Positions 6,384 to 36,729 of a stretch of DNA of 64,000 nucleotides are shown piece by piece (within the stretch, counting starts at the first letter, position 1; every line of letters begins with the position of its first letter). The notes beneath the pieces are model-generated. The model ran no database searches. It was given only the letters and a program-made list of their open reading frames with translations, and was not told the origin of the DNA. Source of the stretch: Candidatus Poribacteria bacterium (GTDB taxonomy: Bacteria > Poribacteria > WGA-4E > WGA-3G); assembly GCA_965198235.1 (NCBI GenBank), contig OZ240248.1, positions 608,001 through 672,000 on the forward strand. The letters are read 5' to 3'. The position numbers and the translations under genes are program-made.

Positions 6384-6423
6384 GTGATAGACCCAAGTCT
6401 AAAGACTTGGGCTTCTGCAAATG

Positions 6424-7635
6424 TTAAGCAGAAGCATTTGTGGAATTCAGAATCGGATGGTTCGATTCAACGGAGGTGCCTACAATCTTGTTAAACAAAA
6501 CGATAGGTCTTACAACTCCTAACCCAAAGGAAGCTACCCCTTCCTTAAGTATATTGATAGCAGCGTTCTCGTCGCGGTCGAGGTGTGTCTCACACTTTGG
6601 ACACGTCCAGTGTCTATCTGCAAGCGTTAGGTTTTTATTATGATAGCCACAAACACAACAGGTTTTTGTGGTGGGAGACCACCGATTGATTTTCAGCACA
6701 GACCGTATCCGCTTTTTGCTTTGGTGTTTGAGTTTCTGCAGAAACTCACCAAAGGCGAGGTCGGAGACTTGTTTTCCCCACAAGCGTTTCATACCCAAAA
6801 GGTTGAGGTCTTCAAAGAACAATATATCAAAAGAACGGCACAGGTCTATCGCCAGTTTCCAATGATGGTCTGCTCTCTGGTTCGCCGTTTTCTTATGGAT
6901 ACGTGCCACATGCTTACGGGAGCGTTCTTGATTATGAGAACCTTTGACCTTACGAGAATACGCCTTTTGTGCAGTTGCCAACGTTTCAGCGTTGTGTTTG
7001 TAGAACATCGGAGAGGTATATCTATGACCCTCACTGCCAGTCAAGAAGTCTTTGATACCAAAATCAAACCCTTCAGCTTGACCCGTCTTGGGTTCAATTT
7101 TAATTTCGGTATAGTCTTCTGTCAGCGTAATATACATATCTCCGAGTGCGTCCCTCGTTACGTGAACTTCAACGATGATGCCCTTGATTTCACGGTGCAA
7201 CGCAAAACGATACCAACGCCCATTCAATCGGATTTTATACGTCGGGTGGTTTCTTTCCTTCTTTTGCGCGTCCAGCACTTTTTCTATTTTCACCTGTTCA
7301 CCAGAGAACGTCATCCCTTTGTGTTTCTTGCACTTCTTGAACTTCGGGTGACCTCTGCCAAGTGTTTTCATCTCTTTGAAACTCTGTGCCAAGCGTTTGA
7401 GCATATTCTGAAGACTCCACGCGTAAGGGATATTCCAATACGCATATTTCTCCAAACGCTTGAGTTTCGTCAAATGCTTCGACATTTTAGCATACGAAAG
7501 TTCTTTACCATACCGACGGTAATATCGCAGAGAGAGCGCAAGGAAGTGGTTTCGCGCAATACCTATGATATTCAGGTCATCGTGCAGACCCTTCAACGAT
7601 TTCTCATGAAAAAGTTTATGTGTTGTGTTTCGCAT
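6424..7635 (-). CDS. tnpB: RNA-guided endonuclease TnpB (element A)
   Basis: RuvC-I GFDFG, RuvC-II FEDL, zinc finger CCVC/CPKC and RuvC-III DRDENAAINI; the D-E-D triad is intact. Confidence 0.93.
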   Translation of the reverse strand: MRNTTHKLFHEKSLKGLHDDLNIIGIARNHFLALSLRYYRRYGKELSYAKMSKHLTKLKRLEKYAYWNIPYAWSLQNMLKRLAQSFKEMKTLGRGHPKFKKCKKHKGMTFSGEQVKIEKVLDAQKKERNHPTYKIRLNGRWYRFALHREIKGIIVEVHVTRDALGDMYITLTEDYTEIKIEPKTGQAEGFDFGIKDFLTGSEGHRYTSPMFYKHNAETLATAQKAYSRKVKGSHNQERSRKHVARIHKKTANQRADHHWKLAIDLCRSFDILFFEDLNLLGMKRLWGKQVSDLAFGEFLQKLKHQSKKRIRSVLKINRWSPTTKTCCVCGYHNKNLTLADRHWTCPKCETHLDRDENAAINILKEGVASFGLGVVRPIVLFNKIVGTSVESNHPILNSTNASA

Positions 7636-7638
7636 GGT

Positions 7639-7727
7639 ATATCAAGTCTCAAGTCTTTATCCCCTATTCAGTGGGAGGCAAGCACGTCACCAAGCGGTAA
7701 CGCTGAATATGCTTGCCAACTTGATAC
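7639..7727 (-). ncRNA. Candidate structured 5'-leader RNA of tnpB (copy A)
   Basis: Three-way junction with a bulge-loop pseudoknot; compensatory changes relative to the copy at 36461-36543. Confidence 0.65.
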
Positions 7728-7731
7728 TCTA

Positions 7732-7760
7732 ATTATACCACATTTTTAGGTAAAAGTCAA
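7732..7760 (-). promoter_or_regulatory. sigma70-type promoter of tnpB A
   Basis: TTGACT-N17-TATAAT with an extended -10 TG on the minus strand. Confidence 0.75.
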
Positions 7761-7853
7761 GTCTTTTTTCAACAGAGACCCACGGTCTAATTCACAACGG
7801 CGAGACTGTATCCCAAACCTAAAAGGATTGGGTTTTAGTCCTCGGAAGGTTAG

Positions 7854-35171: not shown

Positions 35172-35336
35172 TGAGATATCCTTGTTAGCAAACTCCTACG
35201 GGTAGGTGATAGCACCCACCGCCTAAAGGCGGGGGCTTCGGTTTCATAGCGACTGCGGTTTTCTCAAAGAGTCCACCGTCTGACTGTCGCTCCACCAGCG
35301 AGCTATTATCCTGTATCAGAACAGGTTTATCGTGTA

Positions 35337-36449
35337 TCAAGACACGGCTACCCCAGCTCGCAAAATGTTTATCGCAGCATTTATATCTCTATCGTGAGAC
35401 GTGCTGCAGGAAGGACACGTCCAATATCTGTCCTCAAGTGTGAGGGTCTCATTTTTAGAGTCGCAGCCGTGGCAAACCTTTGTTGTCGGTTGCCATTGTC
35501 CTGCTTTCGCAAGCGTTTTTCCATATTTGGTACACATCCATTCAAGGATAAGTGAGAATTCACCAAAAGCGAGGTCAGAGACTTTACGACCCCACAGACG
35601 TTTCATACCTTCAAGGTTGAGTGTTTCAATCGCAAGCGTATCATACTTTCGCACAAGACGCAGAGCCACCTTGAAAAACCAGTCTCGCCTTCTGTTAGCA
35701 ATCTTTTTATGGAGACGTGCCAAGTGTCGTTTCGCACGATACCAAGCACCAGACCCCTTCTGTTTACGAGAGAGGGCTTTATGGGCGGATCGTATTGCAT
35801 TCAAACTTTGTTTGAAAAACTGGGGTGACTCTATTTTCATACCGTCTGAAAGTGTTAGAAAGGTTTTCATACCGAAGTCTGCCCCTGCCACACTACCGGT
35901 CAGTGGGAGTGCCTCGGTCGGTGCTGAATCCTCACAGACGAGATATAAATAGTAGTCGCCTACGGTATCACGTTTGATTGTTACTGTCTTTATCGTTCCC
36001 GTCCATTCACGGTGTTTCCAAAAGGTAAACGATTTCTTCAAACATTTAATATCGATACGATTGCCTTCTATCTCATACCCCGATTGTGTAAATGTCAATG
36101 AGTTATATCTATGCTGCGGTTTTATACGAGGCTTCCCCACTTTTCGGACAGTTCTGCCTTTGCCTCGGTCTTCAATGTTATCAAAGAAACGTTGATATCC
36201 TAAGTCAATACGACGGGCAACTTGCTGAATTACTTGACTCGGTAGTTGATTCCAGTGCGGCTTCGTTCTCCGTTTCAACTTCGTGATATGTCGGCATATC
36301 CGAGCGAAAGACGCATACTTGCCATAAATCCGATAGTAACGTCGCTGCAACTCAAGCAAGTGGACATGCACACCGTGCAAATCGTCTATCAGATTGCCAA
36401 TCTGTATGATATTAGATTGCTGATACAACTCATATTTTTCAGTTTTCAT
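35337..36449 (-). CDS. tnpB: RNA-guided endonuclease TnpB (element B)
   Basis: GADFG, IETL, CHGC/CPSC, DRDINAAINI; start placed at ATG 36449 (MKTEKY) by analogy with element A. Confidence 0.92.
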   Translation of the reverse strand: MKTEKYELYQQSNIIQIGNLIDDLHGVHVHLLELQRRYYRIYGKYASFARICRHITKLKRRTKPHWNQLPSQVIQQVARRIDLGYQRFFDNIEDRGKGRTVRKVGKPRIKPQHRYNSLTFTQSGYEIEGNRIDIKCLKKSFTFWKHREWTGTIKTVTIKRDTVGDYYLYLVCEDSAPTEALPLTGSVAGADFGMKTFLTLSDGMKIESPQFFKQSLNAIRSAHKALSRKQKGSGAWYRAKRHLARLHKKIANRRRDWFFKVALRLVRKYDTLAIETLNLEGMKRLWGRKVSDLAFGEFSLILEWMCTKYGKTLAKAGQWQPTTKVCHGCDSKNETLTLEDRYWTCPSCSTSHDRDINAAINILRAGVAVS

Positions 36450-36460
36450 GGTTTTTTCAC

Positions 36461-36543
36461 GTATCACGCCTTTAACCCCGTTCAAGTGGGTAGGCAGACA
36501 CGCCACCAAGCGGTGACGCTTGAACTGTCTGCCAACGTGATAC
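36461..36543 (-). ncRNA. Candidate structured 5'-leader RNA of tnpB (copy B)
   Basis: Same architecture as copy A with compensatory substitutions. Confidence 0.65.
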
Positions 36544-36576: not shown

Positions 36577-36729
36577 GGTTTTTTGCGGTCTTATATCCCA
36601 AAGCTGAAGCATTGGGCTTTACGACCGAAGTCCCGTAAAAAGGCGATTGGTCGCCTACACCCATTTTAGGTGAAAACGACAATCGCCAATAGTGTAAAGT
36701 TCGGCTTCGATGAACCGCAATCTTGGACT

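Follow-up and report, generated by a model that had tools for sequence, protein, structure and literature searches.

The 64,000-nucleotide window analysed here (positions 608,001 to 672,000 of contig OZ240248.1, assembly GCA_965198235.1, Candidatus Poribacteria bacterium) carries two copies, A and B, each part of a tnpB-only IS200/IS605-type element. Between the promoter and the tnpB start codon of each element lies a structured RNA leader, encoded in both cases on the minus strand. This leader is real, abundant and strongly covarying, it matches none of the catalogued RNA families, and it probably acts as a gate on the translation of TnpB. A first-pass annotation, whose quoted sequence agrees with the window, had suggested an undescribed regulatory RNA at this place. 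The uncatalogued structured leader is borne out; as for regulation, translational control is the best-supported form, given two covarying partners for one strand of the closing stem and a start codon that lies inside the second partner in one sequence type of the fold. We assign a probability of about 0.5 to the reading that the leader is a previously uncatalogued cis-acting 5' RNA that would gate tnpB translation by alternative pairing.

Each element runs in the order left-end (LE) hairpin, promoter, structured leader of about 85-90 nucleotides (nt), tnpB, and right end with a hairpin of its own. The sigma-70 promoter noted at first reading directly ahead of the leader is near consensus in both copies: TTGACT-17-TATAAT in copy A (7760-7732, minus strand, 11 of 12 consensus positions) and TTGACA-17-TATAAT in copy B (36576-36548, minus strand, 12 of 12), each with an upstream TG. 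Among 65 leader copies examined (L055 had too little upstream sequence and was left out), 55 have a recognisable -10 box, and in 50 of these its end lies 4-5 nt from the first nucleotide of stem P1, so the transcript should begin within the first nucleotides of P1. The leader, about 85 nt long, is a three-way junction made of P1, a P2-P3 arm and P4, with a 7-bp pseudoknot joining the P2/P3 bulge to the P4 loop. In copy A (minus strand throughout), the P1 5' strand GUAUCAAGU (7719-7727) lies at or just past the predicted transcription start. P2 pairs 7710-7717 with 7677-7684, the arm spanning 7677-7717, and the 7-nt bulge at 7703-7709 is the 5' strand of the pseudoknot. The P3 hairpin, with loop GCUU, occupies 7685-7702. 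The P4 hairpin (7661-7675) pairs CCC at 7673-7675 with GGG at 7661-7663 and holds the pseudoknot 3' strand in its loop (7665-7671). Copy B folds in the same way at 36457-36543 on the minus strand, with the P1 5' strand at 36535-36543, P2 at 36526-36533 with 36493-36500, P3 at 36501-36518, P4 at 36488-36490 with 36476-36478, and the pseudoknot at 36519-36525 with 36480-36486. RNAfold predicted the identical nested three-way junction for A and B, with z-scores of -4.35 and -3.49, and none of 200 shuffles was as stable.

The source genome (5.17 Mb) contains 17 copies of the leader at 75-100% identity by blastn, and a covariance model built from these raised the number to 25. In the 17 copies, aligned with MAFFT (alignment A1), 96.5-97.0% of cells pair, compared with 83-84% in shuffles, of which 0 of 500 reached the observed value, and with 28-45% for slid partners. 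A larger alignment of 66 copies from 64 loci (A2), which was fitted to the covariance model and is hence biased towards it, gave 97.6% paired cells against 84% in shuffles. There, 22 of 34 pairs changed on both sides (283 cells), and P2 and P3 were 100% and 99.6% paired. The pseudoknot was 99.4% paired, with double compensatory changes at 6 of its 7 pairs and 32 distinct sequences among the 66 copies. Both the three-way junction with a bulge-loop pseudoknot described in the first-pass annotation and the covariation it had asked to see in a larger alignment are thus confirmed. G.U pairs are frequent, for example in 23 of 66 copies at one P3 pair, which places the structure on the sense strand. 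P2 and the unpaired junction nucleotides are nearly invariant within each leader type.

P1 has two tandem copies of its 3' strand, spaced 7 nt apart. In copy A, repeat 1 lies at 7646-7654 and repeat 2 at 7639-7647, the latter ending 3 nt before the AUG; in copy B, repeat 1 lies at 36461-36469 and a 6-nt repeat 2 at 36457-36462 (minus strand in both copies). P1 had been drawn as a single closing stem. The stem holds, and it is not single, since its 5' strand has two tandem 3' partners. Both partners covary with the 5' strand across at least 8 sequence states. In the sequence type of the window copies (type 1), either register is 91-92% paired, with 7 of 9 pairs covarying. Two separate partners of at least 7 bp were found in 50 of 65 type-1 copies, against 0.09% of shuffled tails, and in 23 of 24 copies of a second sequence type (type 2), against 0.56%. 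In the second helix of type 2, 85.9% of cells pair and 7 of 8 pairs covary. The conserved helices are mutually exclusive, and one of them lies over the start codon or near it: the second partner contains the tnpB AUG in type 2, where a Shine-Dalgarno-like tract (GGAG, GAGG or AAGG) stands between the two partners, and ends 3-6 nt upstream of the AUG in type 1. The two registers have similar predicted energies: repeat 1 is favoured in 42 of 65 copies and repeat 2 in 19, with 4 within 0.5 kcal/mol (neither this count nor that of partners includes the truncated copy L074). We also looked elsewhere in the elements for a third partner of the P1 strand or of the pseudoknot strands, and found none.

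Type 2 accompanies a tnpB at C1:239753-241006 of the source genome, which is 82% identical to that of copy A and has the same type of promoter. Its leader is very different in sequence (P2 GGUAGAGA/UCUCUACC) and identical in architecture. A blastn search found type 2 in 56 of the 151 genomes drawn from the order. We extracted 24 type-2 copies by a structure-only descriptor and aligned them with MAFFT; 5 of 30 loci had no descriptor match and are absent from the alignment (L170, L176, L177, L179 and L191), L182 was left out of alignment A4 as its leader is identical to that of L181, and a second, AT-rich match in L169 was disregarded as spurious. Pairing reaches 96.8% in these copies, against 82.7% in shuffles; in their pseudoknot every cell pairs (100%) and 6 of 7 pairs covary. 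On the two strands of the source genome together (10.3 Mb), the structural descriptor found 23 places, comprising 20 of type 1, 1 of type 2, 1 third variant and 1 that is probably spurious. The third variant lies at C1:858365-858421, with a second copy at about 3783622 that shows a compensated change in P3. In this variant the promoter is unchanged and P1 again has two partners, which overlap; downstream come about 300 nt of non-coding DNA and then a B-type right end. The tnpB-less mini-elements that carry it (C1:857980-858500, minus strand, and C1:3783600-3784080, plus strand) are 81-86% identical, differ by a 66-nt indel, and both lack a left-end hairpin. Junction sequences differ among type 1, type 2 and the third variant, and the helices are kept.

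Beyond the source genome, the model matched in 38 of 61 related genomes, including all 36 other genomes of the genus, and in 81 of 151 genomes of the order, where 150 matches were listed and 941 more counted. By genus, the order draw gave 59 of 59 genomes for the own genus, 14 of 38, 1 of 2 and 1 of 1 for three other genera of the family, and 5 of 20 for one genus of a second family. The leader was found in none of the 11 and 7 genomes of two further families of the order, and in none of 25 genomes from seven other families in a phylum-wide draw. An exact pattern search of one genome per species (about 185,000 species) returned 13 stretches, 12 titled as Candidatus Poribacteria metagenome-assembled genomes and 1 as an uncultured bacterium. 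The same pattern gave no stretch in viral contigs, and megablast with element A gave no match in the plasmid collection. We further searched 80 distant metagenome TnpB loci, all at most 40% identical, kept from 542 confirmed. The model matched only one of them, L085, in which P2 is longer by three compensated pairs; the structural descriptor likewise found L085 and added one AT-rich antisense place, taken as spurious, so that with these 80 loci the fold could not be extended to TnpB genes in general. All named matches are Candidatus Poribacteria, and in the genomes searched the leader is confined to this one small phylum of sponge symbionts.

The setting of the leader bears on its function. 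The source genome has 37 tnpB-like loci, and 25 have a type-1 leader (one in a merged locus); 19 of these leaders precede open reading frames (ORFs) of at least 360 amino acids and the remaining six precede broken genes. There are also six Y1 transposase (tnpA) genes. One of them belongs to a full IS605-type element (L079, C1:118714-120320, minus strand), with a tnpA of 139 amino acids encoding a Y1 transposase and a tnpB of 370 amino acids whose start overlaps the tnpA stop. This element has the LE hairpin and promoter of the tnpB-only elements, and a plain leader bearing a Shine-Dalgarno sequence before tnpA in place of a structured one. As it keeps the hairpin and promoter without the fold, the fold is not needed for the DNA chemistry of transposition. 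It occurs where tnpB must be translated on its own. The host has a canonical 16S tail and Shine-Dalgarno-like motifs at about 52% of crude ORF starts, and uses Shine-Dalgarno pairing. Type-1 leaders lack a Shine-Dalgarno sequence, and the earlier remark that no clear one precedes either ATG in the window holds for copies A and B.

Leader identity does not follow protein identity. It stays at 82-85% for TnpB identities from below 35% up to 95% (r = 0.19, 171 pairs), and near-identical leaders occur only in 3 pairs whose TnpBs are at least 95% identical. TnpBs that are only 29-42% identical and have different right ends have the type-1 leader in common. Either tnpB lineages thus exchange the promoter-leader module, or it is under much stronger constraint than the protein. 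The independence of leader and TnpB identity argues against lineage-specific recognition by TnpB.

RNA-library evidence came from four sponge metatranscriptome runs of one study, in which 32-68% of the words sampled from 7 kb around copy A were present. Their assembled contigs match the leader of copy A with 0 differences over 7630-7715 and also cover parts of tnpB, a weak indication that the leader is transcribed; gaps between contigs carry no meaning. In all four runs, summed contig depth at 6388-6555, the 3' end of tnpB, was 225-584, far above most of tnpB. This peak would fit accumulation of the omegaRNA of TnpB, although contig depth cannot rank parts of a gene.

We propose the following scheme. 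Transcription from the sigma-70 promoter would begin at the first P1 nucleotide or no more than 2-4 nt from it. The junction consists of P1, a long P2-P3 arm and a short P4 hairpin, and is locked by the 7-bp pseudoknot. For the P1 5' strand, either of two complementary sequences downstream could serve as partner. The first would close the junction and leave the start region single-stranded; the second would bury the AUG in type 2 and, in type 1, as in the window copies, the 8-9 nt directly ahead of an AUG that has no Shine-Dalgarno sequence. The leader would in this way set the yield of TnpB from a strongly transcribed RNA that is probably also the omegaRNA precursor. Control could be exerted by an equilibrium of the two states, or by a folding timer in which the nascent RNA is open and the mature RNA closed. 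The pseudoknotted junction might define or stabilise the open state, or might act as a binding platform. The sequences establish the fold, its covariation, both alternative P1 partners and the placement with respect to promoter and AUG; firing of the promoter at the predicted site, the presence of both states in cells and their control over translation are inferred.

Several observations weigh against this scheme. The predicted energy differences between registers spread widely (standard deviation 4 kcal/mol), and the pseudoknot is ignored in these energies. The second partner stops short of the AUG in type 1, and is shorter than 7 bp in 15 of 65 type-1 copies, copy B among them. A pseudoknot-locked junction is also more elaborate than a sequestering hairpin needs to be, and something may bind it. 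The RNA data are assembled contigs, which show neither RNA ends, strand nor level, and DNA carry-over is possible. Finally, the mini-elements with the third variant keep the promoter and the fold without tnpB. This is the main observation that the translational reading leaves unexplained; either the leader also has a role at the RNA level, or the mini-elements are decaying deletion derivatives.

An RNA-level role is central to one alternative, in which the leader is a protective or processing element at the 5' terminus. Its paired 5' end would shield the tnpB/omegaRNA precursor from 5'-end-dependent RNases, and it may be released as a small RNA. This would suit a fold that starts at the predicted transcription start and is retained in mini-elements that have lost tnpB and still carry the right end, and there is a precedent in the same family, the IS200 5' untranslated region (UTR), which is reported to be processed to a small structured RNA (PMC5435999, PMC12594629). 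We nevertheless find it doubtful, because a simple hairpin would suffice for protection, and because it would explain neither the pair of covarying partners of P1 nor the placement of the AUG within the second of them in type 2. Both partners would have a use, as the expression platform, if the leader were a riboswitch-like sensor whose junction is an aptamer for a small molecule or ion and whose binding fixes P1 with its first partner. The architecture resembles that of junction riboswitches, in which arms are held together by long-range pairing, and the two states of P1 and the near-invariance of P2 and of the unpaired junction nucleotides within each type are in keeping with this. However, the helices are kept among the three leader types while the junction sequences differ, unlike one conserved ligand pocket. 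No Rfam riboswitch matches, and a transposon nuclease offers no evident metabolic logic, which makes such an aptamer quite unlikely. A related possibility is that the pseudoknotted junction is a true sensor of a small molecule, host protein, the ribosome or TnpB, placed on the two-partner expression platform, with a released 5' fragment that may act in trans in the manner of the IS200 5' RNA. From the sequence we judge it unlikely; if true, it would define a new riboswitch-like class dedicated to genes of RNA-guided nucleases (TnpB).

Conservation of P2 and the junction in sequence is also what a protein-binding site would show, and TnpB is an RNA-binding protein whose mRNA is the source of its own guide RNA. 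TnpB, alone or with omegaRNA, could accordingly bind the leader as an operator and repress its own translation. We regard this as very unlikely, since leader identity is flat across the range of TnpB identity, since divergent TnpBs with different right ends share the type-1 leader, and since a TnpB 82% identical to that of copy A carries a type-2 leader instead. The IS200/IS605 family moves as single-stranded DNA and uses DNA hairpins, and ribozymes often accompany mobile elements, so that a DNA structure used in transposition or a self-cleaving ribozyme might also be considered. Both are highly improbable. The transposase-encoding tnpA-tnpB element lacks the fold and keeps its LE hairpin, and the fold is anchored to promoter and AUG and rich in G.U pairs, even if bioinformatics is stated not to separate single-stranded DNA motifs reliably from RNA motifs (Weinberg et al. 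2017, PMC5737381). No Rfam ribozyme model matches the leader, and no known catalytic core was seen in it. A tRNA-like reading, suggested by P1 and a following NCCA that overlaps the AUG, was speculative and was dropped.

The remaining parts of the elements were placed as follows, all on the minus strand. Copy A has an imperfect LE hairpin of IS200/IS605 type at 7812-7832, read from the sequence, and a left boundary at about 7857; hairpin and boundary recur in other copies of the source genome. Its tnpB ORF (403 amino acids) occupies 6424-7635, with the AUG at 7633-7635. Its right end lies at 6384-6423, with a hairpin at 6391-6412, and the element terminates in ...UCUAUCAC at 6384, as placed by aligning 8 copies of the same type, an alignment that diverges past this position; RNA-library contigs of other copies break at the same position. 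The omegaRNA scaffold of copy A is expected to extend from the right end (6384-6423) into the 3' part of tnpB. Copy B has its left-end hairpin at 36597-36616, also read from the sequence, a tnpB ORF of 370 amino acids at 35337-36449 (AUG 36447-36449), and a right end with the omegaRNA 3' region at 35206-35336, terminating in ...GGGUGCUAUCAC at 35206. This right-end sequence is common to other B-type copies and to tnpB-less mini-elements. Both proteins match Pfam OrfB_IS605 and Cas12f1-like_TNB and are 40% identical to each other, which agrees with the clear divergence noted at first reading. When five members of the family are aligned, the RuvC D-E-D residues and the zinc-finger cysteines, both conserved in copy A, do not vary, so both TnpBs are probably active nucleases. 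The layout also supports the earlier statement that the leader is neither the omegaRNA nor the TnpA-binding hairpin. The leader is not the omegaRNA of TnpB because it lies between promoter and AUG, inside the left end, and the right ends lie at 6384 and 35206, in copy A with the hairpin (6384-6412) 3' of tnpB. It is not the subterminal hairpin bound by TnpA because the LE hairpins (7812-7832 and 36597-36616) are separate, in copy A upstream of the promoter, and because the tnpA-tnpB element is without the fold.

Some copies depart from this layout. In four leader copies of the source genome, outside the window (C1:2575449-2575573, 79511-79612, 5120919-5121041 and 2106876-2106967), a palindromic insert of 45-80 nt (CGGAAAG...CUUUCCG type) splits the -35 box and leaves GUGACU/AGACU there. 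The insert looks like a small element targeting the promoter, similar to a repetitive extragenic palindrome (REP) or a miniature inverted-repeat transposable element (MITE). A full-length tnpB at C1:4993637-4995250 (L084, minus strand), 87% identical to another copy, keeps the LE hairpin and is missing both promoter and leader, which looks like loss of the whole expression module by deletion. One leader copy adjoins the right end of another element (...GGGGUCUAUCAC) and has no promoter or left end of its own, and in another the tip of P3 carries 28 nt of inserted, GC-rich sequence (the two are located at L037:2850-2955 and L060:2383-2513). At about C1:4602787, the sequence beyond a right end resembles a tRNA gene, with motifs of the acceptor and the T arm recognised by eye in the aligned copies; if it is one, the element whose leader lies at 4603988-4604095 would have inserted beside a tRNA. 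In the window, the extended -10 box UGGUAUA (7732-7740) is complementary to UAUACCA (7635-7641), which ends in the A of the AUG. Fold-back inhibition, in which this pairing would occlude the start in read-through transcripts, was considered and set aside as unsupported, because the sequence before the AUG varies and conservation is only partial.

Cas12 descends from TnpB, itself a compact nuclease for genome editing, and to our knowledge the control of TnpB expression in natural elements has been little described. Here, an abundant and strongly covarying promoter-leader module travels between very different tnpB lineages, and its anatomy points to two-state translation control. For RNA biology, it adds a well-supported new fold from an uncultured phylum, with more than 1000 copies and an almost fully covarying pseudoknot. 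For transposon biology, it would show what replaces tnpA-coupled translation when tnpB-only elements arise. The module could also serve as a compact part for expression control.

We compared the leader with known RNAs. With Rfam 15 (4227 models, including riboswitches, self-cleaving ribozymes, exoribonuclease-resistant RNAs (xrRNA) and IS605-orfB-I, RF03065), the whole window gave no match at the gathering score. At E up to 10, the two leaders gave only chance-level matches to snoRNA models and DUF3800-IX, at 13-15 bits against cut-offs of 37-45 bits. The Rfam scan proposed by the first-pass annotation thus gave no match of the kind that would remove novelty, in line with its failure to recognise any known ribozyme or riboswitch consensus by eye. 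The Rfam families RT-4, RT-13, Methylophilales-1 and Transposase-2 were not found in the source genome. Literature searches (IS605-orfB; tnpB with leader, pseudoknot or cis-regulatory; Poribacteria with tnpB; left end) returned no description of a 5' leader RNA of tnpB. A 2017 survey of 224 candidate RNAs is said to have named a motif Poribacteria-1, which could be the same RNA. If Poribacteria-1 is included in Rfam 15, it does not match the leader; should it be the leader, the fold as such is not new, though novelty might remain in the two-partner design, the second type and the tie to tnpB-only elements. The main text of that survey (PMC5737381), whose supplements may bear on novelty, mentions neither Poribacteria nor IS605.

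Among known motifs, IS605-orfB-I (accession RF03065 as given in PMC11701678) and its sister motif are likewise structured motifs found by bioinformatics, and are named after IS605 orfB, that is, tnpB. The Rfam 15 model of IS605-orfB-I gives no match at the gathering score across the window, and none at E up to 10 in the two leaders. The omegaRNA of TnpB resembles the leader in being highly structured and in coming from one and the same element, and it is probably excised from the primary transcript that holds the leader. They differ in position: the omegaRNA is placed at the 3' end of and downstream of tnpB, with its guide beyond the right end, in the available text of PMC10691335, which mentions no 5' leader, whereas the leader stands 5' of tnpB, within the left end, and lacks a variable tail like that of a guide.

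Two further systems are related to the leader by design. In the maturation-gene leader of phage MS2 and in fold-back inhibition of IS10, the RNA 5' end pairs with the translation start region, and the fold or its kinetics set translation. The tnpB leader, known from sequence, shares this pairing of 5' end and start without homology, and we know of no decoy partner or pseudoknot-locked junction in either system. The closest precedent is the tnpA 5' UTR of IS200, a structured 5' leader in the same transposon superfamily that limits translation and has possible RNA-level roles. As far as the available parts of these reports describe it, its mRNA structure sequesters the ribosome-binding site (PMC4513863), it is processed into a small, highly structured RNA called 5'tnpA (PMC5435999, PMC12594629), and the antisense RNA art200 is part of the same system. 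It differs from the leader described here in that it controls tnpA, not tnpB, and has no sequence or Rfam relationship to it; the tnpA-tnpB element of the source genome lacks the fold. The IS200 5' UTR is also a simple stem-loop, whereas the tnpB leader is a pseudoknotted three-way junction with two alternative closing strands.

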